Under the pieces are notes generated by a model. That model searched no databases. It was not told where the DNA came from and worked only from the letters and a program-made list of their open reading frames with translations. The translations under genes and the position numbers were made by a program. DNA of 64,000 nt from Lingula anatina (Eukaryota > Animalia > Brachiopoda), in the NCBI GenBank assembly GCA_051362555.1, contig CM120641.1:27844401-27908400 (forward strand). The letters are read 5' to 3'. Positions 12,793 to 64,000 of this stretch are shown here, in pieces; the stretch's first letter is position 1; each line of letters begins with the position of its first letter.

Positions 12793-13466
12793 GATCTGTA
12801 ATATCAATTTGTACTGTCCAGATATGTATTTCTGAAAATGTGACCGAAATGTCACTGTATTTTTTTCTGTCATTGACATTTGCTCAGACCAATTTAATCT
12901 TGTGCATGATCGCACAGCTGTGCTACTACTGGTATAGCTTTCCTGTTAATTATACATTGCTTAAGCTTTAAGTGTAGTATTTCAATATGATACATGGTGA
13001 GTTCTGTGATATGCTTAAAGAGGAATATATTTATACACACTGGTACATTCATATCATCATTTTGTTATTCATATTGTTTTTTAAGCAAATTTTTTATATA
13101 AAGCCATAAAAAGCCAGGTTCATTTTTCTTGTACAGCTCATTTTTTAGTGCAAGAAACATCCGTCCACAATGTTATAGACCTAAATGCAAATATATACTT
13201 CGAGTTTGTCATTATTTGTTGCATTTTTGTCATTGGTGTCCCTTTTTGTCAAAGAGAAAAAACAAATTCAGTATTTATTTATTTCTTTGGCATTTGTGTT
13301 ACCATCCAAAGTGATATTTTTTTAAAAATCTCTATCATTGTCACCAGAAAGTATGTTTAATAGCAGTTCCTGTGTTACTTTGTCACATTTGAAATGGTTT
13401 TCTATTATTAGTACCACCAGCGTGTACGCTGGCGGTACTCATGGTTTTAGTCCCGACCCGTCTCGT

Positions 13467-13530
13467 CCGGCTCCGCCGGCTCCGTTGGCTCCGCCGGCTC
13501 CGCCGGCTCCGTAAGCTCCGCCGGCTCCGC
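13467..13530. repeat. GC-rich 9-bp minisatellite (ccggctccg)n
   Basis: About 7 copies read directly, inside the Helentron-type element. Confidence 0.85.
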
Positions 13531-14224
13531 GTACTGGCGCCGGATACAAGTCACCGTTACCGCTTCTCCTCCTAGACCGCAAGGACCCCTGTCCCCATCT
13601 CTTGGATTTAGGTCACATATAACCTCAACTTGAACCCCCAGGTTTTTTTGTCTCAGTCGGTACATTGACCTGGGCGTGACGCTCCTTGAAATGCACCCTT
13701 GTCAAAATTTTTGAAAATTCAATGCCAATTATCTACCCTACGGAAGGAATTATGGGAAAATTTTCTACAGACGGCTTTCCAAAAGTCATATGTGTAGATT
13801 TCAAATATGCCCTTGGATTTGACCTTTGACCTTTATTTCAAGGTCAAACGGGCCAAAATTTTCAAAAAAATGAAATTTTTTACGAAAAAAAATATTATTT
13901 GCACTGTTATTCAGACACTACACAGACTTAACCAATAATTATATTGGAAAGTGTTACCCTTTGGGTCATCTTTCATCTCTGTGAATTTGGGGTCAATCGG
14001 TGCATTTTCACAGGAGTAGCGGCCATAAAATACCGAAAATGAAAACTGTCTCTAATTCGGGAACCGTTAATGCTAGCGACCCGTTCTTTTTTGCATTTTG
14101 TAGAGCATGTAAAGCCCAACACTGAGAGTGGTCTCCGTTTTTTTGTATTTCATACGGTTTTCGTGTTATGCTGTATTAAAAAGTACTTTGTGGTGGCACA
14201 TTTTTGTAACTCAGAATTGTAACA

Positions 14225-15120
14225 TTTAGTCCCTTATATCTCCAAAACTGGCAGAGATAGGTCAATAGTTATTATTTAAGTTGAATAGGAAGTCATTTAC
14301 TTGCAATCTAGATGTGAGCTTGAAATTGACCTTTGACCTACTTTTCACCATGAACTGAACTTTGCAAATTTTTGTTCCCTTTTATCTCCAAAACTGGCAG
14401 AGATAGGTCAATAGTTACTATTGAACTTGAATAGGAGGTCACATACTGGCAATTTAACAGTGACCTTAAAATTGACCTTTGACCTACTTTTCACCATGAA
14501 TTGAACTTTGCCAATTTTTGTTCCCGTTAATCTCCAAAACTGGCAGAGATAGGTCCATAGTCACTATTAAACTTGAATAGGAAGTCACATACTGGCAATT
14601 AATCAGTGACCTTAAAATTGACCTTTGACCTACTTTTCACCATGAATTGAACTTTGCCAATTTTTGTTCCCTTTAATCTCCAAAACTGGCAGAGATAGGT
14701 CCATAGTTACTATTGAACTTAAATAGGAAGTCATGAACTGGCAATTTACTGTGACCTTTAAATTGACCTTTGACCTTCCTTTTACTATGAACTGAACTTA
14801 GCAAATTTTCGTTCACCTTTATCTTCAAAACTGACAGATAGGTCCATAGTTACTATTGAACTTGAATAGGAAGTAATACACTAGCAATCTGTGACCTTGA
14901 AATTGACCTTTGACCTACTTTTTATGATGAACTGCTTTTTGCATGTTTTCTGGCCTTTAAATCTGCAAAATTGGCAAAGAAATGTCCATGGTTGCTATTG
15001 AACTTGAATAGAAATTCATATACTATGATATTGAAATTGACCTTTGACCTACTTTTTCACCATGAACTGAGCTTTGCATATTTTCTTGCCTCTCATATCT
15101 TTAAATCTAGCAGAGATGTG
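14225..15120. repeat. Tandem array of ~146-bp monomers (~6 copies) with ttgacctttgacct motif
   Basis: Anchor ctccaaaactggcagagataggtc at 14240, 14386, 14532, 14678, with degenerate copies at ~14823 and ~14963. Confidence 0.92.
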
Positions 15121-38700: not shown

Positions 38701-41700
38701 ATTCATATGTTTGTGGCACTTACTTTGCACAATCCCAAAATCATATTATAACAAATATATGTTTTCAAAATGTTACTGTGCTGTAATGGCTATTACCCTT
38801 TCAAGATACGAATAAAAAATGAAAAAAGAAAGAAAACTGCCAATACCTTATTTTTCTCAAGTTGTTGTTTTAAAGTGGCAGTATCTGGGTCTGTCATCGC
38901 TTCATCTGAATTCTCCAGTCTGGCTGTGGTCAACCATTCATCGAACTCTTCTATGTTTGTCTGGTACTCCTGTAAGTCTGCTTGGTGCTTCTGCTGGTCA
39001 TGCAGCTTCATCTGTCAATGCACGAGTTTTTACATGTATTTCTAGGTAATAAGTTATCATTAAAAAATCAACATTGTAGTGCATACTTCTTGCACAATTT
39101 CTTAACTCAAATTCGACTTAAAATTCTAAATTCAACAAAGAATTTAAAGATCACTTCTTGGCTATAACTATCATCTATTAAATCATGGCCTGATAAAGGT
39201 AGGAACACTACATCTGTCCTTTACCTCTGTCTGTCTCATCCTTGTTCTGGTCATAGACTGCAGAGACTCCAGTCTATCGGTCAGTACCACCAGTGTGGCT
39301 TGCATGACTCGAGGCCCCTCTGGCTCTGAGCTACTGGACATCTGCTGACCCAGGGATCTCACTCCGGCCAGTTTTGTCTTTATTTCCTCTATGTGTGTCA
39401 TCAAAACCTGTAGAATTTTTTTTGTTTGAAAGAAGAAATAAACAAAAGGATAATTATTATATAGGTAAACATTGAAAATTTGTGGATAAGAAAAAGCAGA
39501 ATGAAGACCAACATATGCACAAGGACATTCTACAATATGTCATTACAGGCATTTGGACATATATGCATATTTATGTATAATGACAAATGTCAAAACTACA
39601 CAAGAAAGATGGCCTAATGATCCTGAATACCCCCCTGCCCTGCCCCTTCAAAGTGTTCCCTGCCCAGACCTCACCTGACACTGTGTCACCATACTCTCCA
39701 GGTCCTCTGTGGTCTCAGGTGACAGGGCATCCACCTGTAGCCTGACCTGCTCAATGTTGCTGGTGACATCCTGCAGGGCGTCTTGATACTGCTCCTGTTT
39801 ATGGAGGGCTTCTTGCAGTTGCTGCTCCTTGACACCAAGCTTAAGATTGAAATAAAGAATTTATGTCAAATTTCATATTTTTGTTAACCCTAAGAAATAT
39901 AGTAGAGCCACCTGTAGCTGCTGCTCCTGTCACCAAAATAAGGAGAAAAGGCAGGATCAATTAATACTTAATTTTCATATTTATACTAAATCCGTAAATG
40001 CCTTGGAGCCTTTCTTAAGTAATGGCTTCTGTATTATATCACATGACATCAATTTACTTATTCTTTAAATCCACAGTTGAAGGTATGTATATGGGATTTG
40101 AGAGACAATATTAAAGAATTACATGATCCACATATAACACAACTGATTTCTCAATGTCATATGACCTATGGAGTTTTCAGGTGATACAGTTCCACATACC
40201 TGAACCTGGAGAGTGTTCCAGGAGGAATTGAGTTCTGCCAGTTGAGCCATTTTGTTTGGGGAGCCTGGACCACTAGCACTCATAGATACATCCCCCGTAG
40301 TATCTCCCAGAGTGGACACGGTCAGGTCAGCTGGCTTCACTGGACTGCCCAGAGTGGCCATAAGGTCACTACTCACAGAAGCCTTCAAGGGAATTTAAAT
40401 ATCAAATTAATATCCACATGTTTTTCCTGTATACTATTAAAGATAATTATTACAAAACAGTAGATTCAAAATCAAGTAAAAGCTTTACTGTTCTACAATC
40501 TTCTATGTTTGTGAATTATTTTCAAAGTTCAAAATTTGAATGATTCTTAAAAAACATGGAATGCTTATATATTTGAACAGTACCTAGACAACTTTCATAC
40601 TAATCAAGAATAATATTCAGTGAAAAAAACATGGCAACAATCTAAAAACTTACCTGGTCTGACAATGACTCTGTGTCCTCTGGCACAGTAAGAACCCTCT
40701 CTGGTGACAAGAGTTGTTCTAAATTTTCTTTGTTAGGACTTTCCCTGATTTCAGTATCAACCTGAGCACGTTGGGGCTTCTTCTGAGGAAAAATCTCAGC
40801 TTCTTCCACCTCCATGGCTCTAGCTCCTTCGATTTCTGTCACCAACTGTTCTTGTACTGGACTCTTTCTGTCCCTCATGGCACTTTCCACCATTTTCCTT
40901 AGAGAGTCCGATGGTTCTGGTTCTTCACTAGCTTCAGGGTCTTTGACAGTACCATCTGTCATATCTCTTGCAGCCATAGCATTTGAGTACTCTTCCAGAA
41001 GATTATCAGTATCATCGGACTTGATGCTCATTTGATCCGAATTATCAGTCACTAGTTTGGATTTCTGTCGATCAGATTTTTTGCCAGGTTTCGCAGCATC
41101 CGGCACATCCTCATCAACTTCACGGATCTTGGGAATCTTTTCAGGTGGTTCCATTTCTTGAGACTTGCCTTTCCCACTGCTTTCCCTGTCTGGGGCTCGT
41201 CTTTCTAGGACTGTTTCAGCAGAACTGGCACTCCAGCCTCCACTTGGGGTATTAGACCTCCCGTGCATGGCACTTTCAACCATTTCTCTCAAAGCCGTCC
41301 CACCAGCATCACCAGGTCTGAGTGAATCGGCTCCTCGGCGCTGGGTCTCTTTTGAGCTTATGGAGCCTTCAGGGGTCATCATAATACCACTATCAGTCCT
41401 ATGTTCCTTCCAGTCTCCTGGTGGCTGCCCCTGGGATGTCTTCCTGGTTGCTATGGACTCGGAGCTCAACGAGGACATCAATCCCGTCTCGTCGCTAGCC
41501 AGACTCCTTTCAGAGCCCCAGTTGAACTTTTTGCGAATAGTTGGACTCATCTGCTGGGTTCTCTCCTGTAGCTGTAGGCTCTGCTCATTGATTTCTCTGA
41601 TTTTCTCCTGGTAGGTCTTGATCTGGGCTGTCAGGGTCTGAAGTTTATGCACATGACATAAAACATAACATGAAACATCACAGGTAATATGACAGAAAAG

Positions 41701-47708: not shown

Positions 47709-50700
47709 GTTAAACCCGTTTCTTACTGTAGATATTCAGTTGAATGTGAGATGGTAAAGAGTCTGCCTTATTTAAGCATCCCAAAGCTAAAAAAACTGTT
47801 TTTATTATATCAATATAGTTCAACAATGACAACAAATTACCCTGAGTACAATCTGTCTCTCATCTGCCTGACTGCTGACGGTTCTCCACCTTTCATTAAT
47901 ACCAGCTATCATCCTGGTAATGACCGTCTGGCTGTTCTGGTTTCCAGAGCGGGTCAACTCTCTGGCCTTCTGGTTCATCTGGTCCACTACTGCAGCACGC
48001 TTCTGGACAGCCTCAGTGAAATTCTGAACATAACAAAGTCAACATGCAAATAAACATGCCCATAATGAACACTGCCCCCTGCTGAATAAATAATGTTTCT
48101 CAAACAGCTTATTTTGGGAAGGAAGTGAGTATTGGTACTTTCAATGATCTAAAATTGGTTACAACCTTGATGATAGTATACATAAAGTAAACAAGTTCTA
48201 TTCATGACTGATACTTTTAAGTCCAATGGCTTAAATCCGAAGTTTGCGGAGTTTTTATATTCAAGAGTTTCTTATCATCAAGATTACATACCTCAATCTG
48301 GACCAACTGTTTAGCAGCTTGTTCAGAAGTGGCAGCAGCAGTGGTGTCAACATTTTCCCATTTCAGTTCCAATTCTTTCACTGTTTGGCTAGCATCTTCG
48401 AGTTGACCCTGAAGCAAAAAAAATGAATAAATAAATTAATAACAATAATAAACCAGCAATGTAAACAAAAATCCCTATTAATCCAAAAGTATGCCAAGCA
48501 TCAGTGATTAAAATATTTGACTTAAAATATTTCACTTCCTTTGAAATTACACTCATTAAAAGCAGAATTTTTGCCCCTGTTGTAACATTCATTGTTTTTA
48601 TTGTTAAAAAATTGAGAAATGTGAAGATGTTGGACAATATTATAAATTTATGTTATAGCCATGGAGACAGTATATTCAGAAAGTACCTGGAACTCATTCC
48701 AGTTTTTGAGCTCATCTTCTAACTGTTTCTGGCGTTTCGCGGCAGCTTTCAATACATCAGTGAGTTTCTGGTTGAGAGCTTCTACTGACTGCTGCAGAGT
48801 CTCTTTGTCATTGGGATCAAGTGTTGGGAAAAGACGCTCTGCTGTGTCTTGGATTCTGGACATTTCATCAGTTCGCGTATGTCCATCAGCAAAATATTCC
48901 TGGGTCACAAAAATATACACAATTTATACATTTGTATCAAACACAGCAGCACTTTTTGACTGAAATAATTCAATCATGAAAACTAATTCATGACAATATT
49001 TTTCAGGACAACAGAGATCACAAGGTAGTTTAATTTTTAGAAAAACAAACATCAAAGTAACGCAAATGTATTTAAAAAATGCGGAATTTCTTATTTCATA
49101 TGTACTCACCCTGTGTTGCTGTAGCTGGAAGGTGATGCTCTCATAATCTATCCCATCATACACAGGGACAAGCAGTTTCTCAGCATCCTGAAGCCAGATG
49201 GTCAGTGTCGTCTGCTTGTCATCAAATCTGAGGCGGTTATTCTTTGCAGCATTCAAGTAATCGGATTTACCATATAATTTGGACTGAAAATGATAAAAAA
49301 ACATTATAATTAATGTTTCAATATAAATTACTATTATTTCAACTCAAACATTGTGTAAAAGGAACTGTTGAGTGCAATAAGATTGGCAATACCAGGAAAT
49401 AATCATTATATGTAATATATGAAACATTTTGGTTATACATGTACCTGCAAAGCTGCTCTGTCATTTTCGTATTGCTCTAATCTGTCTGTCATCTCAATAG
49501 GCATAATTTCATCAAGCTCTTCAAAGTGAGCTCTCTGCTGAGCTATCTTGGTTTGTACTTCTCTTAAATGGCTGTTTATTTCATCAGCAACAACCTGAAA
49601 TGAGACATTACAAATTCATCAGATGAAAGTTCAATAATCACATCAAAATCACCTACTTCAATTCTAGTCTGACTCTTGAAGATACTGCGTTTCTTTATAA
49701 TTTAGTCTAAAACTGCAACTAAAAAGTTGAATTTCTACATACAAATTAATACAATAAAATGCTTAAAGGCCGATAGGGCTTACACATTAATAATGCACAC
49801 AAAGTTCATGAAATACCTGAAATTAGTGGACATGGCATAGGGAAACCTTGTTGAATACAGTGACCATTGTTTTAAAGATCCCTTATGTTGTTTCCTTTTA
49901 AGAAATGATCCCTTACTTGATTAAGAAATAGAAAATAATTACGAGTTACAAAACAAGTGCCATATATACCTGTTTATTTATCACATTTTTCATCATTACC
50001 TTGTGTTTCTTAATCTCAACCTCCACCTCATCAGCTTCCATACTGAGAGGTACCTGGACCACAATCTCTCTGTTCTTCGACTGCAACCACTCTAAAGTCT
50101 TATCCATTTCAGTCTCAAAGTCTCTCCTGTCTGACATGATTTTGTCCAATTCCTCCGTTTTCTTCTCAACTGCACGGAGCAATTTATCAAATTTCTGCTT
50201 GAGGCTTTGGTTTTGGTCTGCCACTGTCCTCTGGTCAGTGGTGTTGCACTCTATGGCTATCTGCTGCCCTTTGTCCATTATGGTGGCCAGCTGGAGTTCT
50301 TGCTCCTCTAGGATGGTGTGGACAGTCTAAAGTATGAAAAATATATAATTAGACAGTTTTGTATTATAATATTGAAATATACTCCCATATACTCTCAAAC
50401 AATACTATATAACTAAATGTTATATTGATTTAATTCCATTTTCTGAAATAGAATGTTTCTCAGCATAGAGAATAAGAGAGATCTGCACTATAATTACTTC
50501 ATCCTTTTTTATCCATATAGACTTTCCCACGCCAAGAAATATTCATGTTGAAACAATTGTGTAGACGAAATATAACTGCGCCAGTGTATTCATTTGTGAT
50601 ATTTTTTTCACTTACTTTGTATCTGTCAAATTTAGTTGGAGTTGGTATGCCAAGCTCACTGACTGCATCCAGTTGTTCTTGGCTCTCCTTCAAACAAGTT

Positions 50701-53700
50701 TCAAACTCTGTCTTCAGACTCTCATAATGCTGCCTGATAGTGACAGCATTTTCCAGCCTGGCGTAGGACTGTTCCACCTGCATCATGACCTGGTCAAAGG
50801 TCATCGTCAAGCGAGACAGTTCCGAGGCTTCCGTGGTTTGACCTTTGGCTGCCATACTGTCTTTTGATTGGTTGAGAGCAATGATGGTTGGCTGGTAATC
50901 ATTCAACTGGGTCTGCAGTTTCTGTAGAACAAAATACAAATATTTTATTGTTATCTAACAAGTGCTTGTCAACTTGCTTCTGCTAACAACTGTCTGAAAT
51001 ATAAAGAGGCAACAAAATACTATATCTTTCTTTTATTTTTCTCCTACATGCAATATGTCTAGAACCAAGGCTGAAGGCTCTTATTTTTAAACCACATGAT
51101 CCCTTTTTTTAAAGTCCTGGGTATACTGTATGCCTTTGAAATTCTCCAAAAAGCAAACAATCTAAGCAATGTCTACCTCACACTGGGCCAGCATCTTCTG
51201 GACCTCTACCGCTTTGATGGCCAGAGGTTTGTTCAGCCTGCGAACATCTTCCTGCAGTGAGTTCAGGATCCTGGCGCACTGGGAGATCTCATCGTCCAGC
51301 TGACCCCTGGCATATACAGTATCCTCCAGTGTCTTCACACGCTGTTTGGCCAAGTTGGATATCCTGTGGGAATAGATCAGTGTAGATGTGAACCCACTGT
51401 ATTCAAATACATTTCTATTTTTGTTGATGTCTTTACATTATGTTCAAGACATGTAGTTCCTTAGATGGAGAAATTTTAATGAACATTACTTCTCAAGTTT
51501 AATTTCCTGCAGCAGTGAATGAATATACATGTGAGAAAACCAAGTTCATATTATAAACTTATTGGAACTGAGTTGCTTTTTTTCCACTACAACTGCTTAC
51601 AGGTGCTGGTAATAACCTGCTGGTTATTACAAATAATTCCTTAGATGGAAAATTTTTAAAGAACATTACTACTCAAGTCTAAATTCTTGAAATGAATGAA
51701 TAAACATATGAGAAAATAAAGTTCACTTCATAAACTTATGGAACTGGGTTGTTATTTTTTTCTACTGCTATAATTGCCTACACCTGATGGTTCTTACCTC
51801 TGATGTCTATCCCTGAGTGTTTTAATCTGTGCTTGCAGAGTCAGCTTGTCTGCTTCGCTAAGTGACCCCAGGAAACTCTGACCTTGAGAGGTCACTTCAT
51901 CACTGAGAACTTCATATTCAGCTATCTTCTGCAACAAACTCTGTAAACGAACCAAAAAATGCATTTTATCTATCCAATAATTTCAAAATGTATTCTGATG
52001 TTCTCAATACTCTCCACTTAAAATTCTTGATCTACCAAATGCACAACAAACATGAATATGTCACTGCTTCTACATGATAAAAACCAGCAATGTTGGCTCT
52101 TTGTTTCACTTTCAATCACCCCAAAACATTAAATGTTAACATTAAAACATTAAAGAAAGTAACTTAATCTGGCAAATTTCAGACAGTGATTTCAGATGGG
52201 TGTTAGTTATTACATTAGAAATGTTGTGTCAAACCAAACCTGATATTTCTTGAGCTGTTCCTCTATCAGCTCTATTGTACAGTCCAGTCTGATCTCAGTA
52301 GTGATGGTAAGCTCTACTTCCTTTAGCCACAGTTCTAGTCTCTGAATATTGGACTCATATTTCCTCCTGACGGTTAGGCTCATCCTCAAAGTGGTGACAT
52401 GCTCAGACAGGCGTGTTTTCATTGTTTGATATCTTTCAAGTAGTTCTAGAAAAATATAATATTTCATCAAGAACATGTACAGAATACCACTATCTTTTTA
52501 AACTCCACCAATCATCAGATGATTTTAATTTGTAGAGAACATATACATATTATGTGTGTATATAATCTCTTTTAAAGAGAAATTGCTTATAAACTCATAA
52601 GATACATGTAATAATCTAAGAGTCCCTCTTTCTCATTGAAAATTTTAAGATTTTTTTTCAATATCAAAGTAGAACTGACCCTTCAACATTGTCTCCAGCT
52701 CAGAAGTCCCCTGCTCATCACAGTCAGTCTGGAGATTTCTTCCCTGGGTCACCACTTCCTCTAGTGTACCCTCCATGGAAGTAACCTCTGTCAGCAAAGT
52801 CTGTGGAAATAAATGAGATCATTTCAATATGTGTGACATTTTGAAATCTGAAATCGGAAGAGCCTCTGGGGGAAACCACGATAAAGATGGAGGAAACGGG
52901 CTAAATTGGTTATCTTGTCTTTATATTTAAAGATTGTTTATATTTATAAAATATCAGTATTATGCTAATAATACCGCAGGCAAAAATGTGAATATTATTT
53001 TGCTAACAGAAATTATTAAGCTGATTGCACACAGCAAGAAATGCCACGGAGTTGATCCACGTAGTCCAATGGTGTGTAAGGGAATGGGGACTTAGGCTCT
53101 ATTCCCATAGATTTTACATCGATCTATCCCCGCGGGGAGTCTCACTAGATTACTTTCAGATAATCCGACTTAAATGTCCGTCCCACCTACTACAAGCTGT
53201 AAGGAGGTAATTAACTTTCGTGTCCACTCAGCTGACAGCTATTTAGCGTGAACCCCCAGGGAGTTAGGTCGATCTAAAGTAGGTCGATCTAATCTATGGA
53301 AATGGGGTGTAAGTCATTTAAAGTATTTCTGGGGCAATTGTACCAACCTTGTATTTTTCATGCTGCCTCTCCACTTCCACAGCATATAGCCTTATGGTGT
53401 CAATTTTCCCAACAATCCTCTCCTTTTCCACAACCCAGATTGTTATTTTCTCATAGCTCTGGTAGAACTCCTCTCGGAGCTCCAGACTCCTAGAGAGAAG
53501 CTTCTGTTTTGTGAGGGCGTTGTTGTGAAGCTGGCTATGCTCTTTCTGAACAGACTGGATCTGTTTGTCAACTGATTCCCGCTCTGGGTGGCTGAGCTCA
53601 GAAAGCAGTGTCTCTCTTTGTCTGCTCACGGACTCCAGCACGGTGTGTTTGCTCTCTATTTCTTTGCAGATGATCTGATAAATGAATTTAAAACCATTGT

Positions 53701-54592
53701 AATTCTGAACCATGCATAAGTTTGCTTATGTGTTAAGTATAACTTGTGATGACACAAACAGTGTATACTTTTGTTAAATTTGTATTCCTCCAGTAGGAAA
53801 CTAACATGTACATTTTCAAAATATTTAGCCTGTTGAAAAAACAGGCATGTAATCTGATTTCAGATCTGAAATATATAAATATAAATATACTCAGCAATAA
53901 AATGTAAGAATCAGAGAGAGTCAGGCTTTGACAATTATTTCAGGAAAGGAAAGAATTTCAAATTATATTTTGACCTATCATATTTATATAGGAAAAACCG
54001 GCAGATTTTGACTTTTCATTTTATTAGAAAGCAATTATCTAACTTTCTTACATTATGCTCATGCAACTGCTGCTGTACATTTTGGACCCCATGTCCCAGA
54101 GATAGCCGACTCCCCACCATCTTCTTTCTCTCCTTCAGCCATGCCACGTAGCCGTCCAAGTCCTTCAACAACGTCTCTCTGCTGATGATCACCACCTCAC
54201 ACGCCTGCTTCTGATGTTTGGAACGCTGGCGTAAATCATTGTAGCGACCTTCTATATCTCTGTAAAATCAGTCATGTTTCTTATTTACTTGCATTCTCAA
54301 ATCAATGCAATGGCCTTCCTTGTCTTAAAAAGGCTTCCAGGTAATGACTTATTAATCACGCAACACATTTCAGCTTATCTTCAATATCTACACTTTAGTA
54401 CTGAGCATGAGAATTTAGTATTTTGATAACCAGAGGGTAATATTATGATTGTAGTAATAAAATTTATTAATGTACTGTTTTTTTGAACTAACAGTTAATC
54501 ATTAAACATCCTGATGATATTGATACAAATATATTTAATAATATTTAAGTATTCTCTGAGAACTGATATAAACTTTTACTACTACTCACTGT

Positions 54593-54666
<74 letters not shown>

Positions 54667-54960
54667 GTGTAACCACCAGGAGCCAAGAGTTGAAAGACCA
54701 CCCCTTATAACTATGTTTTTAAAATAACATATTACCCTGGTTCAAAAATTAAGCCTGAAAGTTTAAAGCCCATCTTTTTTTTTTTTTTTTTGAACTGGCC
54801 TTCAGACTCCCCACCAGTTGAGAGAAGATCATTTGGCTTACCTGACTTGATAGTCCACCAGGTTTCTGTCATGGGGACTGACCCGGGGGGCAATTCTTCC
54901 ACCAAGTTGTCTAAATGCTGCCACATCTTCCTCTTTACTGTCTAAGTCTGATACAAGTTT
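17840..54960 (-). CDS. SYNE1: Nesprin-1/SYNE1-like giant spectrin-repeat KASH protein, 3' part (60 exons, ~4696 aa in window; 5' part outside window or from alternative first exon)
   Basis: Exons (GT-AG, phases consistent, 14091 nt in total): 54842-54960, 54052-54259, 53348-53674, 52680-52800, 52240-52445, 51798-51940, 51177-51363, 50616-50921, 50000-50326, 49445-49594, 49110-49283, 48687-48899, 48292-48408, 47841-48023, 47486-47629, 46848-46993, 46418-46586, 45982-46182, 45454-45561, 44469-44795, 43796-44101, 43242-43556, 40654-41637, 40200-40382, 39675-39839, 39225-39407, 38847-39011, 38250-38594, 37802-37999, 37311-37598, 36802-37014, 36534-36638, 35683-35829, 35279-35449, 34514-34971, 34098-34257, 33663-33845, 32894-33370, 32371-32703, 31923-32056, 31413-31605, 30514-31146, 29910-30236, 28977-29612, 28543-28709, 28131-28293, 27694-27881, 27269-27419, 26765-27085, 26194-26394, 25571-25645, 24744-24909, 24267-24466, 23895-24009, 23314-23519, 22738-23067, 22284-22496, 21757-21879, 21109-21170, 17840-18071. 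Spectrin repeats throughout. Nesprin-specific blocks GVASVLNLCQVLLHDTDAC, IEETWRLWQKF and RCKTPTGPELE, plus the KASH terminus. Confidence 0.95.
24158..24200. repeat. (AAAT)n microsatellite
   Basis: Direct reading, intronic. Confidence 0.85.
26668..26709. repeat. (AAAT)n microsatellite
   Basis: Direct reading, intronic. Confidence 0.85.
34396..34452. repeat. (ATTAT)n microsatellite
   Basis: Direct reading, intronic. Confidence 0.85.
36268..36279 (-). CDS. Candidate 12-nt nesprin microexon (KEEP)
   Basis: Minus strand tgcatgatttccgtag|AAGGAAGAGCCA|gtaagg; phase 0-0, inside a phase-0 intron. Confidence 0.45.
42303..42323 (-). CDS. Candidate 21-nt nesprin microexon (TAFSRLK)
   Basis: Minus strand tcttcttttctag|ACTGCATTCTCTAGGTTAAAG|gtgaat; phase 0-0; TGCATG just downstream. 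Confidence 0.35.
47041..47173. mobile_element. Degenerate hAT-like MITE remnant
   Basis: cagggatgag ... ctcatcccta inverted termini, internal ggggtccaggg; TSD not convincing. Confidence 0.35.
51457..51797. repeat. Diverged tandem duplication (~180-bp period, 2 copies) in nesprin intron
   Basis: ttccttagatgga...gaacattact...ataaacttat...ggaactg recurs at 51457 and 51637. Confidence 0.8.
53091..53313. mobile_element. Degenerate MITE
   Basis: Imperfect inverted termini cttaggctctattcccatagatt..atcgatcta / taggtcgatctaatctatggaaatggggtgtaag; CpG-rich interior. Confidence 0.45.
54597..54662. repeat. (TA)n microsatellite, ~33 units
   Basis: Direct reading. Confidence 0.92.
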
Positions 54961-56066
54961 CTGAAATGGGAAAATTTAGCTACTGAGAAACTGCTGAAAA
55001 TGTTTCACTTTTCAGTGTATAAAGTCAAACATGATAAGAGGAATTGTTACTGTTCAGAACTTCATATTAATATGAGTGTCAGGAAAACCTCACAAGTGAG
55101 AGTGGGATCATGATCAATACAACTGCATTTAATTTTTTAATTAAACTAGAAAAAGACCTTTGGTTACCAATTCATCTGAGAAAAGTTGTGAAATACATAA
55201 GATCAAGGATGAAAAAAATGTAAAGATGAAACTTTTTTAAGGCCCATTAGTGAAAAGTTTTTAAAAAAACCAAAACACCACTGAACAATTTTTCCAATAT
55301 GTGATATTCTGCTATTTTAGAGCCTATACTTCATACAAATGTAAATATAAAACTTGTTTTAGTATTACTAATTTTACAAACTCAAAACTTATGCATTTAT
55401 ACACAAACCACATACTAGACTCTTGTGTATAACTACTGATATTGGACGACATTAGGTGTGCCAGATGCAATAAGACAGCAAAGCAATTGTTGCTAATTAT
55501 CTTCCAGAGTAAGCACATAGTGTCAACATTCATGGAATGCTGTGTCAGCCTTGAAATATGCTCCACAATTTCTATACATGCATAAACATACTTTTTCACT
55601 GACAGTGCTGAATAGATATAGAAAGTTCAAAATAATGTGTTTTAATTGATACTTAACACCGAACACTTACATTTTCTGATTTTCTGTCAGTGACATCAAA
55701 AGTGAACTTAATGTCCAGTGAATTTGCAATTCACCTGCAGTCAATGTCAATATACAAAGTTGACATTATTTAATAGGGGTTCACTCTTATACATAAGGTT
55801 CAGAAAATTATGCATCTATTCTTTATTTTTTAATAGTGAAACAGGGGAAATGCTTCCATTATGACAGACTGGTTTCAATCAACCAGTTAAAATACAACAT
55901 GCTCAGAGCATCAGAGATTGGTAATCCAAAGTTATTATTAATATTTACTAAAACTTAATCACTTCCATTATGCACTGGTTTAAGCATATCCCATTCAGAA
56001 CACACTATCAGTTTCCATTGGAACAATTCAGTATTGATCAGCCTCAACAAACAACTTTCATCTTAC

Positions 56067-56153
56067 CTTTCTCTTTCTCCTGAAGCTAAGAGTGGTGTAC
56101 GTTTTCTCATGTCGCGATCCCTGCTCATTTTTACACGACAGACAAGCACCCAT
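56067..56153 (-). CDS. Candidate alternative first coding exon of nesprin encoding an N-acylation signal (MGACLSCKNEQGSRHEKTYTTLSFRRKRK)
   Basis: ATG in atcATGG context at 56153; 29 codons; phase-0 donor AAG|gtaaga, compatible with the phase-0 acceptor at 54960. Confidence 0.6.
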
Positions 56154-57832
56154 GATGCCCTCATTTTTTACCTGAACCCTGAGTCCAAACACATACTAAA
56201 GCAGCTCTATTTCATTTGCAAATTTTTCTCTGCATAAACAAGTTTTTGCATCATATTGCTGTCTAATTTATACCATTGGTTCATGTATGGTTTTTCAAAA
56301 TTGTTCCTAAATAACAGTGATGGTTGTAACTGGACACTGGGCAGTACAATGATTTACATGACGCAGCATTGCTTAATATGTATGCCCTTAGTCCTGTTTG
56401 AGTTCAGGTGTCACATTATTCTCTCAATTTCCTATCCTCAGTTAACGCATGCCCTGAACTTGATTGTTATCCTAATGGATTTTCTAAGATTATTCCTGCC
56501 ATTTGCAATCATTTCCATCTCCATTTTTCATCTCGGAATCTTATTTTTCTGTAGAACACTTCACCAACTCTTGGCACTGCAAACTGCCACTAACTAATTG
56601 ATTGAATGGCACTGCAATGGCCTGTCTACTAGCTCATTGAAAATTTAAGCAAACAGTTCAGTTATACTATAATCACTTTAGCCTGTGTTAATTATTGACC
56701 ACTGTAAACAAATGTACACTCAATATCAACGAATCAAAAGTGGGATTTTCTTGTAAGGTGTAGATTAATGATAACACCATGTTAAAATTCTGAGCCCCAT
56801 TACTTAGAGATATGCAGGACATGAGAATGCTCCATTTTGAGAAAGTTATCAAATCTGCCTTCTTTTCAGAAGCATTTATTGCCGTGTAACAGCCTTTGAT
56901 GAAAGGCTGAGTCAATATTGTAGGTCTAATTGATTACCAATATATGGACGCATTCTTAAGGTTTTCATTACCCAATACTCGGTATGTAAACACTGAACAC
57001 AGCAACATAATATCATATCCTTTTTTCAATAATTGTATTTATTTTAGGTGGCAGGTTTATGGCCTCACATCATGTATCAATCACATAAATTGGTTACATT
57101 TTGCAAATCGATAAAGTTTTTTTTTTTTTATACATGAATGTACTTTAGTTCAAAATCAAATACTTTTTGTATTATTTGTGAGGGTAAACCTTGGCTTACA
57201 TCTATACAAGACAAAAAGCAAACAAATTCTTTATCAAAAAAAATTTATAGTAATACTGCTTGAAAATATTGACAAAAATGGAAACCATTGTAAAATCTTA
57301 CATAATTCCATTTTAAATTCTCAAAGAACAGAAAGCACAAAACCATTAATTTCTTCTCCTTTAAACGACTAGTATGATAGGATACATTTAATTTTCTGGC
57401 CTAAGCAGTTTCAAATATATAAATCACATCATATTGGGTTGATAATATTTCTAACATCTACTTTAAATGAAAAATACCAAATCAAAATAATCAGCAAAAT
57501 TTTCAGAAGGCACTTCAATTACTTAATATCGGTGGACAAATGTTATGCGAAAAGTTCAAATTGTTTACCCTTTTAATATAAAAAAGCTTCACATATATGC
57601 TTTTTCAAGTATAAATGACTGTTACCCTGAAAATTTGAAAAATTTATCAAATCAAAATACAATTAAAAATATTATGCATGATCTGGAAAGTGTAACAAAA
57701 TACTTTCATGAATTACAGTGGGATATAAATTTCCTGAACAAAGTGACTCCCTTTCTTAGGTGGTATATGAGAAAAATATTTCATCCAACACGCAACTTCA
57801 ATTCTGTCCTATATGTTTAATTGAATGAACTT

Positions 57833-60445
57833 CTATGTTTCTATCAGATCCTTTAAAAGGGATCTTTTCATGGTCTCAGTAGTCTCTTTCATATCTCTAG
57901 CCATTTTTGTAGCTTTGGCAATAGCAACATCCATATCCTGCTTGACCTTTTTATCCTTTTGTTTAGCACTCTTATGTTCTTTCTTATCAGACAGTCCTGC
58001 TGACCCGTATTCCCTGGTGAATTCCCTGGGTGTGGCTCTTCTTGGAAATGGAGGAGACCTGGCTAGGTTCACAGGCACTGGGATTTGAGTGCGTTGGGAT
58101 GTGACAGGAGTGGTTGTGACAGGCACAGCTAACACAATGGGTTGAGGTGGTGGTGCTTGTGGTGGTTGTGGTGTGTTGACAAGCTGTACAGGGGGCTCGG
58201 TGACAAATATCATGTTTGGAGAGTTAGGTGGTGCCATAGGCATGGAAGACTGGGGCCTGGGAATGACTTGCCTATCAGGAGGCAACCAGGGACTTCTTGG
58301 TACTCTAAGAGCGTGTTGGCCTGTTGGATAGTTGGGTGCTTGTTCTCTTCTCTGCTGCCTTGGTGAAGGTTCTTCATATCTGAACGAGTCTCTCTGTTGG
58401 GATCCAGTTCTATTTCTTGTCCTGTCTGGCAACAGCGGATACCTGCCTTCCAGTCTATCACTTAAACTCCTGGAGTGCCTATCATTATGTTGTGCTGAAG
58501 AATCCAGTGTACTCACGGGTTTTCTGTGCCACAGTATGGGTTCCCTGGCACTATGGCTCCTATGGTGCCTTGGTTGATCAGGTGTATTTGAAGGTGCATC
58601 CACCTCCATGGGCATGTCTCTGTTATCCATATCATCCTTTATCTTCCTAACTTCATCAATCAAGTTTCTAATTGCACTATTCCTGGGGTTTTCACGGCCT
58701 TTCCTTTTTGGTTTGCTTTTTACAGGAGTCTGAGTTTGACTGCTAGTATGTAATGGGGTCTGATTAGTGGCATCAGCTACCAAATTCTCAGTTTGACTTG
58801 AAATACTCCATGGTCTAACAGAGACTAGAGTATCTGCATCACTGTCAAATACATACTTAGGTTTAGTTCCATCCAAAGTCTTCAATTTTGGATTATCTTT
58901 TACATTTTTATCAACACGATTCAATTTTGTTGGAACCAAATCGAGATCTTCATCATTCCTCATTGACTTAGTCTTGGGCAGAGATTCCCTAGAACTAGAT
59001 TTTTTCTTTAATTTCTTTGAATCTTTGTCTTTCTTTTGCTTCAAATGCTTCCAATGATGTCTGCTTGGAGTCTGTGTAGCTGCATGGTCTGGTGTCTGAG
59101 TGGAATGATTTGATATTGTTTGACCACCAAAATCTCTCATTTGTGGAATGTTTTCTTGGGAAACTATTGAAGATGCAGACGGAAAAACATCCATTTGCAT
59201 GGGACTTTCCCTTCCTCTAACAACAGGCAATCCAAAAGGTCTTCTCTCCTGTCTCCTGGTCTGTGGTGAAGGCTGTGTCAGAGGTTTCTCAGAAGTTTGT
59301 GTTCCAGCATGTCCTGTAGTTTGCATAGTATTGTTTCTTAATCCCTGACCTGAAGAATCCAAGGTACCTGGTACCTTCAAATTTCTTCCAGTACCAAGTG
59401 CTTGGAACATATTCCCTAATGTTCCACTTGGCACTTGGTTTCTGAAGTTTCTGTAATGTGTTTGTGTGCCAACATGTCCTGGGGTCTGTGTGGACCCACT
59501 TCTCACAGTCTGCATTGAAAAGTCATATGTTTGCCTTGGACTAGAAGTGCTTTCAGGTTCTATGACCATGGTCTGTGTACCAGCATGGCCAGGGGTTTGT
59601 GTCACACTATCTCTAATAGTCTGCATTGAGAAATCCCTTGTAATGACAGGAACCTGGGTGTCCAAGGTAGTCCAAGAAGCAGTTACACTTATGGTGTCCT
59701 CTTCACCTTCTGAGCTTTGAGAGTTGCGATCAAAATTTCTAAATTGATTTCCAGTTCCACTGGACCTATCCATCATAGTTGACTGTAGAGGACCTAATGA
59801 GTTGTCTGTTTGAGTTCCGTAGTGAAGACCTGGCAATCTAAGACTAGAATCATTATGTACCGGTGAAGTACCCCGACCAACCTGAAGAGGTCTTAACATT
59901 GAGTTTCTTAAAGTATCTTGACTAATTTGTTCAATTTCCTGTGGTGCATCTTGATTATCCACAGCAGGACTACTACTGCCATCTAGAATAGTAGAACTAT
60001 TCTGTGATGCAGGCATGGTGCCACTGGTAGAACCCTGGAATGTATACACAGTCTCCCCCAGTCCAGATTCATCACTCTCATACTCCAGCTCATCTGGCCA
60101 CAGTTTCTTCCTCCCCCTGGGGGTACTGCGACCAGACCCTGTCCTGGGGGAATTGGCATCACTTGGATGAAGCCATGGAGTGGTCCTACCAGATCTTGAT
60201 CTGGGGGTATTGGTACCACTTTGGGTGTCCCTTGGGGTGGTCTGGTCTGTTTTAGGGCTATTGGTGTCAGTGTCATTACACTTTGCTCGAGTCCTATGGG
60301 ACCGAGACTGGGATGTTTGTCTACCACTCTGTGGCAGTCTTGGTGTGACGCCACCTGATGGTGACCTTGCCATCCCTCTTGACCTTGATGAGTGACCTTC
60401 ACCTAGGGTTTGCGTCCCACACTCATGACTATCCATGGCACCAGG
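57833..60445 (-). CDS. ~870-codon intrinsically disordered ORF with multiple TQT motifs; probable alternative terminal exon of nesprin (or nested gene)
   Basis: An uninterrupted 2.6-kb ORF in AT-rich intron. In-frame phase-0 acceptor tgtttgtatgtctag|CCTGGTGCCATGG at 60445, strong Kozak ATG at 60436, stop at 57833. Minus-strand AATAAA at 57038-57043 and 56875-56880. Confidence 0.85.
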   Translation of the reverse strand, partial: PGAMDSHECGTQTLGEGHSSRSRGMARSPSGGVTPRLPQSGRQTSQSRSHRTRAKCNDTDTNSPKTDQTTPRDTQSGTNTPRSRSGRTTPWLHPSDANSPRTGSGRSTPRGRKKLWPDELEYESDESGLGETVYTFQGSTSGTMPASQNSSTILDGSSSPAVDNQDAPQEIEQISQDTLRNSMLRPLQVGRGTSPVHNDSSLRLPGLHYGTQTDNSLGPLQSTMMDRSSGTGNQFRNFDRNSQSSEGEEDTISVTASWTTLDTQVPVITRDFSMQTIRDSVTQTPGHAGTQTMVIEPESTSSPRQTYDFSMQTVRSGSTQTPGHVGTQTHYRNFRNQVPSGTLGNMFQALGTGRNLKVPGTLDSSGQGLRNNTMQTTGHAGTQTSEKPLTQPSPQTRRQERRPFGLPVVRGRESPMQMDVFPSASSIVSQENIPQMRDFGGQTISNHSTQTPDHAATQTPSRHHWKHLKQKKDKDSKKLKKKSSSRESLPKTKSMRNDEDLDLVPTKLNRVDKNVKDNPKLKTLDGTKPKYVFDSDADTLVSVRPWSISSQTENLVADATNQTPLHTSSQTQTPVKSKPKRKGRENPRNSAIRNLIDEVRKIKDDMDNRDMPMEVDAPSNTPDQPRHHRSHSAREPILWHRKPVSTLDSSAQHNDRHSRSLSDRLEGRYPLLPDRTRNRTGSQQRDSFRYEEPSPRQQRREQAPNYPTGQHALRVPRSPWLPPDRQVIPRPQSSMPMAPPNSPNMIFVTEPPVQLVNTPQPPQAPPPQPIVLAVPVTTTPVTSQRTQIPVPVNLARSPPFPRRATPREFTREYGSAGLSDKKEHKSAKQKDKKVKQDMDVAIAKATKMARDMKETTETMKRSLLKDLIET

Positions 60446-61115
60446 CTAGACATACAAACAACCCATGTGTTAACACAACTTGAAATGGCATTGTTGCACA
60501 CAGCAAGCTCCTGCAGTTGCCCTCTGAATTTTGCCCTTTATAGGTATTTTACAGTCCAGGTAGGTCGACTAGATCATACACCTCATACAAATATGGGGGA
60601 TGTTCCATGGGTAAAACAGCTTTGGGTGGTAGTTTTAAGGAATAGTTTAAAAGAGAAGGCAGCAGCCATGGCAAAGAGTATTAATGGTGAGTCAATGTAT
60701 CATTCTCTGATATAAGATGTCAATCAGACCATATTTCACTTCATTCCATAAAAATCATTAAATTAGCCAAACGGTTGCTTATTTCTCTATTTTGATAAGC
60801 TGTCTAATATATTCATCACACTTACAAAATTATAAAATTAAATCTAATATCTACCAAAATGTAACAGACAGTTTTTAGCCTACCATCTCAATATTCACAA
60901 TCATATTTCAAGATTTGATTATATGCAACATGCCAATATAAAGCATCAGCTTGCAGCTTGAACTGAAGCTGGATAATATGATTAATATAAAATCACTGGC
61001 AAATTATGCAACAAGTGGTTACATATTAAAGAAATCTATTTTAACATTTAATTAGAAGTTAGCACATAATGGTTATTCATATGCCACCAAAAAATCATAT
61101 TAGAATTTTTTTGTC

Positions 61116-61701
61116 AATGGTCTATTTTTGTAACAACAGTTTTATATTTTTTTGCCATGCAATTATTTATTTTGGTGTAACTTGCAGTTACCATTTTTAT
61201 CAAAAAAATGTATAATTATTATTTTATAGTTCAATGTTCATGATCCAGTCAAGATTGGAAACATACATATAATACAGAAGACAACTTGAAATAATGTGGA
61301 AAAGTGACAATATTCACTTGTTGTGTATAAAATATATATAGGTATGATATTTGCAAATTGTGCTGAAAGTTCCATTGATCTGATGAAGAAAAATAAGACA
61401 GATTTGAAAATATTTTACTAAATGGTCTACTTTTGTAACATCAGTTTTCTTGCCATGCAATTATTGATTTTAGTGTATCTTGCAATTCCTATTTTCAACA
61501 CAAAATTGTATATTTATCATAATTCAGTTAAATGTTCATGATTTATTCCAATCAAGATTGGAGAGATAAAGGATACAGAAGACGATGTGAAATAATGTGG
61601 AAAAGTGATGGAATATGAAGCTTGTGGTGTGTAAATGTGTGTAAAATATACAGGTGTGACATTTGCAATCTGTGATGAAAGTTCCATTGACTTCATGAAG
61701 A
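61116..61701. repeat. Diverged tandem duplication (~305-bp period, 2 copies)
   Basis: aatggtcta..ttgccatgcaattatt..tcaagattgga..gaaataatgtggaaaagtga..gaaagttccattga recurs at 61116 and 61421. Confidence 0.85.
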
Positions 61702-62771
61702 TGTGATTAGTGTTAGAAGTCAAAAGCAAGCCACTCAACAAGGAAAAATTCAACCAGGAAAACAAGCACAGCAAAAATGGGCAAAAGCTGTTAGGATAAG
61801 GGACATGCAATACAAAACCACTAAATTGCTGCTTTACCCACTAACACCACTGTTACAAAACAGAAATCAATTTCTACTCATGCAATTTTTCAGAAACAAT
61901 TTCATTTTTTTTTTTGGCTATTTCATCTGCAGGAGCTACATGCTAACACAACAATGAGAACCTGAGAATGCACTACTTTGTTAATATAAAGAGTTTAAAT
62001 ATTTTTGATCTATAATTTAATAAGATTGACTAAATTAAACCCAATACTAGAAATGCATACAAGTAAAATCATACCAATGTAAAATCTATTTTTGTAAGTT
62101 TTTAAAAAGTTTCTTTAAGGAATATGACAATAAAGAAATCTACTTATTTATCAAGATTTTTTCATTAACCCCGCCAGCAGCTTGTTACATCCAAATAATA
62201 AATTGCAACAAAATAAACCATAAATTAAAATTAAGCAAACAAAGTAAACATACGTTGAAATCAAAACATATTCGCAAATAAAACTCAAATTATATATCAC
62301 TGTTAGTTTTGATCATTCACTGTTAGAGGATTAAAGCTTTAATATTTCAGCAATATTGCCACATCCATGAAAGGAGTCCTAGCTAGGTTACTTGTCTTTA
62401 CTTGTCTGCATAAAATAACTGAGTGAAAAAAGTTTTATAAATGAAAATCCTTTCATTCTTTTTAGCAACTTACTGATGTAATTCAAAGAAAAAAATTTAA
62501 GAGTACTTGAAGATTTTTCAATAAAATACCAAACATATACCAAAGCCATATTGAGTATCCTTTCATGGATCTGTAGTATTAAACCACGTTGACAAAAAAT
62601 GATATTAATAAATAAAATCAAAATAAACAAGCCTTCAAAAACACATGATCAACTCACCTCTACAACTTCTATAAGGAGCTTCCATCAGGAATAAAGCTTA
62701 AAGCACACATCAATCCACAACAAGGACCAGGTGAAACAGGACAGTTCACATAAGCCAGCTGATGAGCTATA

Positions 62772-62935
62772 GGCCGCATTCAGAGGAGCGGACTAACTAG
62801 TCCGCGGGTCAAATATGGTGATCCACTAAAAAGCTTGCTGTCTAATCCACTAATAGATTCCCCCTGGGAAAGTATTCAAGTGGGTCGGCCATATTTGACC
62901 TTCGGACTTGTTAGTCCACTGTTCTGAATGCGGCC
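62772..62935. mobile_element. MITE with ~55-bp imperfect TIRs (Tourist/PIF-like termini)
   Basis: ggccgcattcaga..ggactaac.agtccg..ggtcaaatatgg..ccact is mirrored by agtgg..ccatatttgacc..cggact.gttagtcc..tctgaatgcggcc; flanks ata/atg. Confidence 0.8.
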
Positions 62936-64000
62936 ATGTAGGAACTCTATTGAAGGTTAGTGAGCAGCAGGGTTACCATAGGTTAGGTGTTAGGTTTGGT
63001 TACAAGCACATGTAGTTATTATCAGTTTGCATTTATTTTATGTATCACAAGGGTTATTCAATTTTGCACAATGTACGAGGATTTTGCATTCATGGTGCCC
63101 ATGTACACATGAATCAAATGTTTTATCTTTCATTTTGAATATCACTGACAGAAAACATCAATCACAGAAGGATTGACATTTTGAGAATATTCACTGCCAA
63201 TAACAGGCTTGGCAATATGGGTAATTATTCATTTGCAGACCCCATTTTTCCACATTTAACCTTCCAATACTGCACTCATAAAACGGAGAACAAGATTAAA
63301 ATATCCGAAATTATACCTCACAAATAAACAACCCCTACTTCAATACCAGAATGAGGAAATACTGCATTATTTGCCAGATGTTCTCAATATTTAGAGGCAT
63401 TTATGTGTAGCAAATATATAAATCCATCAAAACCCCACCAGGCTTTCAAGAAAGTGAGTGTCTCATCCAGTATTTTATTGCAATATTCTACTCTAGCAAA
63501 ACTAACAACTGTGAATGTGTTTGCTGATCTTACAAAGTAACTGCAAGGACATGTATTATATTCTTCTTTCTTAGCTAGGTCCCACTATGTTGTAATAATA
63601 TACCAGCTGTAGCTATTTCTATGTAGTACAGAAATTCTAAAAAAATTCAAAACAGATATTTGTCCTCTTTCTAGCCTTAACCTACAATAACCTATGGAAC
63701 TAAAAGTATTGGCACAAGCTAATAGTTACACTATACAAACAGCCATTTTACAGCTTGTAAACAGAATAAAAGATGGGTACAGCTAAATAGTCATGTCACT
63801 GGCATTTCCTAAACATACATTTAGTAAACTACATTTAATACTGCAGATAAAACTTTTCCAGTGCCCAACTAAGTTTACTGAAACAGCCTTATTTGGTATA
63901 TTTTAATACATCTTTAAACTTGATTGCTAGGAAGATTCCCTCTTACAAATGAAAGACAGTGATTTTCTAAAATAAATTTTCCAATTATAATTGATTAACA

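Follow-up and report, generated by a model that had tools for sequence, protein, structure and literature searches.

We analyzed a stretch of 64,000 nucleotides from the brachiopod Lingula anatina (assembly GCA_051362555.1, contig CM120641.1, positions 27,844,401 to 27,908,400), here called the window; all coordinates below follow its own numbering. On its minus strand, inside an intron of a giant nesprin gene, lies an open reading frame (ORF) of 867 codons (60436 to 57833). The ORF ends in a stop codon and is transcribed, and its product carries 18 QT or QV sites that resemble the binding motif of the dynein light chain LC8 (DYNLL). Our preferred reading, held with about even confidence, is that this ORF is likely a nested gene on the same strand as its host and that its product, predicted to be disordered, would bind many LC8 dimers. 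Binding to LC8 is likely in itself, and so is the status of a multivalent LC8 client, as judged from the motifs. The original prediction for this region had proposed a multivalent LC8 scaffold serving as a dimerizing tail on a nesprin isoform. Its scaffold part gained from the flanks of the sites, from selection on Q and T among the modules, from predicted disorder, and from transcription, with binding itself still read from the sequence. The tail part fared worse, and a nested gene now appears the likelier identity.

The LC8-type motif array

A single stop-free frame runs along the minus strand from 60445 to 57833. Its first ATG, at 60436, stands in the context GCCATGG, its end is a TAG (57835-57833), no intron is required in between, and stranded RNA reads fall on it. 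Every QT and TQT motif and cluster of the original prediction was found in this frame, where it had been placed. The anchoring glutamines are residues 9, 209, 261 (QV), 272/280/288, 309/317/325, 372/380, 439/447/455, and 548/559/567, plus 569. QT occurs 21 times in the ORF, compared with a mean of 6.56 and a maximum of 15 in shuffled sequences, and TQT occurs 10 times, compared with a mean of 0.67. None of 5,000 shuffles reached either count, and both excesses were equally seen with shuffling confined to blocks of 50 residues (0 of 5,000). As controls, the predicted nesprin chain of the host has no TQT across 4,638 residues, and QT is absent from two more ORFs of the window that encode disordered chains (328 and 417 residues).

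Three sites lie outside the modules: Q9 (HECGTQTL, 60404-60427), close to the N terminus; Q209 (LHYGTQTD, 59804-59827), the top-scoring site; and Q261 (TTLDTQVP, 59648-59671). Their scores in the matrix described below are 7.3, 11.7, and 4.9, respectively. The others form five modules on the same strand, supported by motif counts, protein alignment, and matrix scores and, for the first four, by DNA copies: module A, three abutting octamers at Q272/280/288 (59567-59638); module B, Q309/317/325 (59456-59527); module C, Q372/380 (59291-59338), where the first octamer of the triplet is lost; module D, Q439/447/455 (59066-59137); and module E, Q548/559/567/569 (58724-58810). The proposed origin of the clusters by internal duplication is visible in the DNA as a 65-nucleotide unit in four copies, 60 to 74% identical to a reference copy; the fifth module can be aligned at the protein level. 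The modules escape Tandem Repeats Finder. Their spacing, which had been called a regular 8 residues, is exactly that in eight neighboring intervals, and two others (261-272 and 548-559) measure 11.

The LC8 motif is described as an octamer spanning positions -5 to +2 around the Gln (PMC3078936). Octamers were scored with a matrix that we counted manually from the S1 table of PMC5746249 and set against assumed background residue frequencies; with duplicate orthologues and anchors other than Q removed, 64 verified motifs went into it. All 18 sites, that is, the 17 of the original prediction and Q569, score above 3.3, a cutoff taken from PMC5746249 that is not strictly transferable to our tally, and 15 score above 6. 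Of the 860 octamers of the ORF, 15 exceed 6, compared with 3 of 4,631 for nesprin and with no more than 5 in any of 1,000 shuffles. A test of the flanks is less circular, as it leaves QT itself unscored. The flanks of all 21 QT, four poor ones included, average 0.80, compared with -4.4 when residues are drawn at random at the frequencies of the ORF itself (0 of 10,000 as good). None of 10,000 draws did as well when position -1 was left out, when paralogous sites were collapsed to 11 classes, or when positions -4 and -2 alone were matched to LC8 preferences. In the mirror control, downstream flanks gave -2.2 versus 0.75. Pro in the motif core is reported to be inhibitory for LC8 (PMC3078936); it occurs between -5 and +1 in none of the 17 originally named sites, and the four other, lone QT (residues 40, 65, 302, and 392) all carry it there and score at most 3.0.

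Comparison of the modules with one another points to constraint. Their Q and T codons show 26 silent differences on 26.7 sites and no amino acid difference on 93 sites, the latter partly built in because the modules were aligned on Q. The proportion of replacement differences (pN) is 0.47 at the other module positions and 0.68 in the flanks, which look neutral beside a silent proportion (pS) of 0.70. Silent sites are saturated, and the module copies are therefore old. This pattern, partly circular as it is, suggests that selection has kept Q and T among the paralogous copies. The proposed comparison of QT with flanking residues across orthologues thus has a counterpart within the ORF; the protein and ESM Atlas searches found no orthologue for the cross-species version. 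Polymorphism in the RNA reads is a weak indicator of selection: the ORF has 8 silent and 13 replacement changes (21 of 24 variant rows; pN/pS 0.47, p = 0.079), or 9 and 12 by hand when two changes in codon 636 are taken together. No indels are listed in these reads. An apparent nonsense variant at codon 636 was dismissed, as six of six reads carry a neighboring change in the same codon, which then reads Ser.

Homology searches came back empty within their ranges. A phmmer search with the whole ORF against 1.84 billion representatives gave nothing at E 0.001; a word search with residues 200 to 620 matched none of 5,196 candidates among proteins of 1,519 to 4,335 residues; residues 795 to 867 matched none of 17 candidates at E 1 among proteins of 476 to 1,518 residues. 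The exact sequence was absent on look-up, the ESM Atlas held no usable match to the whole ORF or its C-terminal part, the repeat region matched no PDB sequence at E 10, and Rfam had no match in 52500-64000. A nesprin exon used as a query found a single relative, at 27% identity, among 1,594 candidates of 418 to 2,000 residues. Close relatives therefore seem poorly sampled, and the blanks say little about whether the ORF is an orphan.

Several points weigh against LC8 as the partner. Beside the missing orthologue, the nonsignificant polymorphism, and the built-in share of the Q/T constancy, rows that PMC5746249 flags in red as rejected could not be told apart in our tally and may be included in it. 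Lys or Arg at -3, present in 25 of the 64 verified motifs, occurs in none of the sites. The ELM scan that had been suggested, run as a strict pattern with Lys at -3, matched nowhere in the ORF; PMC5746249 describes the ELM definition as too restrictive and the -3 Lys preference as unsupported. Met, Gly, or Asn at -1 occurs in 5 of the 17 sites, including the first of each full triplet, and in none of the 64 verified motifs.

The chain had also been proposed to be disordered. A single-sequence AlphaFold2 model gives 758 of the 867 residues a predicted local distance difference test score (pLDDT) below 50, which without an alignment is weak evidence of disorder, and every QT and QV site lies within such a segment. 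The composition is rich in Ser, Thr, Pro, Arg, and Gln, and the whole ORF contains no Pfam domain. Helices are predicted at residues 459-477, 584-604, and 821-866; Pfam searches on two helices gave sub-threshold matches only. The product is thus predicted to be disordered except for its C-terminal helix (residues 821-866; 57839-57976). That helix reaches a pLDDT of ~90 from residue 831, lies ~250 residues beyond the last QT site, and has hydrophobic residues at 8 of 14 a/d positions, a modest heptad pattern that makes it a candidate weak coiled coil.

Nested gene or nesprin exon

The host is the 3' part of a giant nesprin gene (17840-54960, minus strand), for which our own script predicts 60 exons encoding ~4,638 residues with spectrin repeats and a terminal KASH domain (E 2.5e-27); five listed read joints match its introns exactly and two approximately. 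The intron that contains the ORF lies upstream of the phase-0 exon at 54842-54960 (exon 54960) and exceeds 9 kb, compared with a median of 272 and a maximum of 3,037 nucleotides for the other nesprin introns.

RNA evidence comes from seven same-species runs (X1 to X9 without X5 and X6), of each of which ~6 to 30% was read. Runs X1 to X3, from one study, place 17, 21, and 16 reads on 54801-62700. On the ORF their depth is 1-3x, all of it on a single strand, and on exon 54960 it is zero; the strand is that on which X4 reads nesprin, the same library direction being assumed. Across 49001-55000, the nesprin-exon bins are empty in X1 apart from the one with a repeat. Runs X4, X7, and X9 have reads on nesprin exons and none on 58001-60500, the reverse of X1. 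In X8, four reads connect exon 54960 with an upstream sequence that keeps the frame and is matched nowhere in the window (10 mismatches in 30 at best), and that transcript therefore skips the ORF; X8 also has a few reads on it. Reads gather on the ORF and are near-absent elsewhere in the intron. Thus, the ORF is transcribed, which had been named as a point on which the scaffold proposal could fall, and its pattern is distinct from that of the 3' nesprin exons. No joint is listed at either end of the ORF, and no loose end at 60445, at a depth (1-3x) below the listing threshold. One X1 read pair on the ORF strand, at 56649-57176, lies ~0.8 to 1.2 kb past the stop and suggests a long 3' untranslated region.

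The distinct pattern argues against a regular cassette exon and fits a last exon as well as it fits a nested gene. An internal cassette as the main form was ruled out by the in-frame stop and the absence of listed joints. Reading through to the KASH exon fails as well, given the TAG at 57835-57833; the only strong phase-0 donor past the last site is 58603 (5.9 bits), with no joint listed. As the ORF ends in a stop, it could, even as an exon, only end a KASH-less isoform.

Between these two identities, we find a nested gene probable, a KASH-less last exon possible but disfavored, and anything else very improbable. The candidate acceptor is the AG at 60446-60447, part of an in-frame TAG ahead of the ORF. 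It lies in phase 0 and is very weak (1.1 to 1.35 bits): 55 of the 56 nesprin acceptors outscore its 1.35 bits, a value that 22% of the 558 other AGs in 55000-64000 equal or exceed. By itself this is not decisive, since alternative exons can have weak sites. The ATG at 60436 has a full Kozak context. A TATAAA (60537-60542) lies 30 nucleotides before a CA at 60513-60512 and is a weak candidate for an independent promoter, and candidate poly(A) signals (AATAAA) lie at 57043, 56880, and 55827. The GC content at third codon positions (GC3) is 0.354 in the ORF, 0.545 in nesprin, and 0.46 in nesprin's own disordered exon, and GC content remains raised, at 0.39 to 0.46, over ~250 nucleotides upstream of the ATG. 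The X8 joint, the zero depth of X1 to X3 on exon 54960, the weak acceptor, and the GC3 are what tell against the nesprin tail of the original prediction.

A separate gene has its own difficulties. The acceptor AG is exactly in phase 0, matching the intron; ATGs at 60491, 60466, and 60453, between the TATAAA and the start, would burden the leader; TATAAA is common here, with eight on the minus strand of 55000-64000; a last exon would just as well be expressed without the exons downstream; and the depth is only 1-3x, with no 5' joint listed either way.

These points sustain the strongest alternative, which we regard as somewhat unlikely: the array would be the alternative last exon of a KASH-less nesprin, spliced in phase 0 to 60445, and would form an LC8-zippered dimerizing tail. 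The phase of the AG suits the intron and 45 of 56 nesprin exons, all three upstream ATGs precede the AG, and reads on the ORF but not on the exons downstream agree with it. Nesprin isoforms that lack KASH are known, and the Caenorhabditis elegans KASH protein UNC-83 is reported to bind the LC8 orthologue DLC-1 (PMC4284225), which sets a precedent for LC8 sites among KASH-family proteins. UNC-83 differs in having one site near its KASH domain, whereas the stop of the ORF bars the array from a KASH-bearing chain, and the array may not belong to nesprin at all. A last exon would also leave the Kozak ATG at codon 4 to chance and sits poorly with an acceptor weaker than 55 of 56 and a GC3 unlike nesprin's. 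No joint or loose end is listed at 60445, at very low depth, and no protein of 1,519 to 4,335 residues matched residues 200 to 620, which is weak evidence.

A strong donor at 62657 (minus strand, 9.9 bits) lies just downstream of the second of two elements resembling miniature inverted-repeat transposable elements (MITEs), and a few X3 reads lie near 61929-62700. It is a candidate for the end of a non-coding first exon, either of the ORF or of a short nesprin isoform. Most of the conflicting evidence on gene identity would fall into place if a non-coding first exon were spliced to 60445.

Site spacing, occupancy, and other readings

We return to the nested gene with a product that would bind many LC8 dimers. 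Within its triplets the octamers abut, with zero linker residues in the eight intervals of 8 residues. An extended chain spans 0.35 nm per residue, so that eight residues measure ~2.8 nm, compared with ~4 nm for the bead formed by an LC8 dimer. That bead size is reported in PMC5963919. Verified neighboring sites lie at least 11 residues apart (U19, 11; Nup159, 12 to 13; 53BP1, 17; S1 table, PMC5746249). Solved multivalent LC8 structures are described with 3 to 9 residues between motifs (PMC12797016), and linkers with 3 to 4 residues in KANK1 and 4 to 5 in Nup159 (PMC12803091). A fully occupied rod of the KANK1 or Nup159 type takes linkers of at least 3 residues, and eight intervals here have none. 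The linker-free pitch below the LC8 footprint means that neighboring sites should not fill together in register. Adjacent sites should thus be mutually exclusive, and at a minimum pitch of 11 at most ~12 of the 18 could be filled, in keeping with the earlier suspicion that the pitch is too tight for full occupancy. No array of overlapping or mutually exclusive tandem LC8 sites appeared among the best 12 of 35 literature matches.

How such a chain might work can be sketched. LC8 dimers would hold two copies in register like the rungs of a ladder, with every octamer contributing a beta strand to a groove of LC8, and the C-terminal helix would act as a weak dimer seed. A triplet would hold one dimer, at the middle site, or two, at the outer sites 16 residues apart, but never three. 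QTP occurs 6 times versus 0.7 expected, and every full triplet has TQT-P in its middle. In a QT-P context, phosphorylation by JNK detaches Bim from dynein. In Bim, T116 is the Thr of QT-P (S1 table, PMC5746249), and its phosphorylation by JNK is reported to free Bim from microtubules (PMC4695108). By analogy, the middle TQT-P suggests a register switch in which proline-directed kinases would shift the register and so alter the stiffness or length of the duplex. Against the switch, the outer sites include one with an atypical residue at -1, and the outer-pair state would rely on it. Plain redundancy for avidity explains the tight pitch equally simply. The full version, an orphan gene inside nesprin that encodes a lineage-specific LC8 client with sites deliberately too close and triplets acting as two-state switches flipped by proline-directed phosphorylation, we consider unlikely.

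From its motifs, the product would work like ASCIZ, Nup159, and KANK1 while being a homologue of none. The yeast nucleoporin Nup159, which binds Dyn2 at 5 LC8 sites, likewise has tandem QT-anchored octamers in a disordered chain, and two of its listed motifs are much like sites Q309 and Q447 of the ORF; its neighbors, however, are 12 to 13 residues apart with linkers of 4 to 5, against 8 and none here, and no sequence homology was found. ASCIZ/ATMIN (7 to 11 LC8 sites) is similar in its high valency, its mixture of strong and atypical sites, and the partly filled complexes expected of it (PMC5963919, PMC10046861); it differs in its zinc fingers and its irregular linkers of at least 3 residues, whereas the ORF has regular duplicated triplets and no Pfam domain. 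The KANK1 L2-LC8 rod has ~15 LC8 sites in a long disordered region, described as weak, non-canonical, 3 to 4 residues apart, and filling cooperatively into a rod of ~53 nm (PMC12803091). Unlike those, the sites of the ORF are near-canonical, stand in spaced clusters, and are predicted to be unable to all fill. Bim (BCL2L11) shares the TQT-P, where the Thr before Pro is reported as the JNK site whose phosphorylation releases Bim (PMC4695108), as a possible counterpart to the six QTP of the ORF, but has a single site with Lys at -3.

What sets the ORF apart is the 8-residue pitch with zero linkers, the tightest verified pitch that we found being 11. In the multivalent LC8 work cited here, linker length is the main control of cooperativity, and linkers have at least 3 residues. 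A natural linker-free array, repeated five times and apparently kept by selection, would be a ready-made test of spacing below the LC8 footprint, one that would have to distinguish redundancy for avidity, alternative registers, out-of-register cross-linking of chains, and a phospho-switch. If the register switch holds, LC8 scaffolds could be designed by steric exclusion instead of cooperative filling; if the ORF is a nesprin last exon, it would make an LC8-zippered KASH-less nesprin. Importance is limited by the lack of a homologue and of an assignable cellular role. A literature search that left most subscription papers outside found nothing that brings nesprin, LC8, and TQT together and nothing on a nested gene in a nesprin intron.

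The pitch also bears on a different, improbable reading, in which the QT repeats are read by something other than LC8 (as ATM/ATR S/T-Q clusters, as proline-directed phospho-sites, or by a beta-strand binder with a smaller footprint) and the likeness to LC8 motifs is incidental. S/T-Q occurs 23 times versus 13.6 expected (11 of 3,000 shuffles) and S/T-P 27 times versus 18.3; the pitch is under every verified LC8 pitch found, and the missing Lys or Arg at -3 suits this reading too. The invariant element is, however, QT and not TQ: position -1 is Thr in 10 sites, Met in 3, Ser in 2, Gly in 1, and Asn in 1, and position +1 is Thr in 16 of 17. The fit of positions -4 and -2 to LC8 preferences speaks for LC8 as well.

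Two further explanations are highly improbable. The first makes the ORF an alternative first exon, with a promoter at ~60540 and a phase-0 donor at 59881 leading to exon 54960 in a short nesprin isoform, the rest of the ORF being read only when unspliced; the donor scores 8.4 bits, in the range of true donors, and nesprins are reported to have internal start sites (PMC4284225), but X1 to X3 have zero depth on exon 54960 with no joint listed, the splice would drop 17 of 18 sites, and 682 further codons remain open. The second takes the ORF for a low-complexity frame that is young or in decay, or for what is left of a repeat, with its transcription as noise from the intron and no protein function under selection. 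It would suit the depth of 1-3x, the polymorphism test, and the lack of a homologue in the protein and ESM Atlas searches, but not 867 open codons in AT-rich DNA, Q and T kept while silent sites saturate, or reads that gather on the ORF, are near-absent in the rest of the intron, and have no indels listed.

Other features of the ORF and the window

The ORF has four more features of note, all on the minus strand. A basic N-terminal stretch (60116-60364) holds 6 of the 9 S/T-P-R/K sites, compared with 2.5 such sites expected (4 of 3,000 shuffles). In the single-sequence model, the helix at residues 459-477 (59006-59062) is Lys rich and might be a nuclear-localization or polyanion-binding patch, and the helix at residues 584-604 (58625-58687) is short and amphipathic. 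A proline-rich stretch (58037-58339) has 28 Pro in residues 701 to 800.

In the nesprin gene, a 984-nucleotide exon (40654-41637, minus strand) is mostly low-complexity, has phase 0 at both ends and no QT motif, and served as a control. There are two possible KASH-less 3' ends on the same strand: read-through of donor 21108 meets a stop at once (21109-21100), and an AATAAA comes after a site near 18290 that resembles an acceptor (~18290-18200). Two short elements with inverted ends and a MITE-type look, at ~53090-53315 and 62780-62920, attract RNA reads from elsewhere in the genome, hundreds on the former and a few on the latter; some reads join both.

Between the 3' ends of nesprin and SPATA7 lie imperfect tandem repeats and a GC-rich short-unit repeat (~14200-15100 and 13440-13560), probably a transposon remnant. 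A SPATA7/HSD3-like exon (9220-9837, plus strand; Pfam E 4.7e-14) stands tail to tail with nesprin, and an acidic ORF of 417 codons after it (11539-12792, plus strand), with no Pfam match, may be its long last exon. An exon at 2394-2786 (minus strand) with two pore-loop motifs reads like a two-pore-domain potassium channel.

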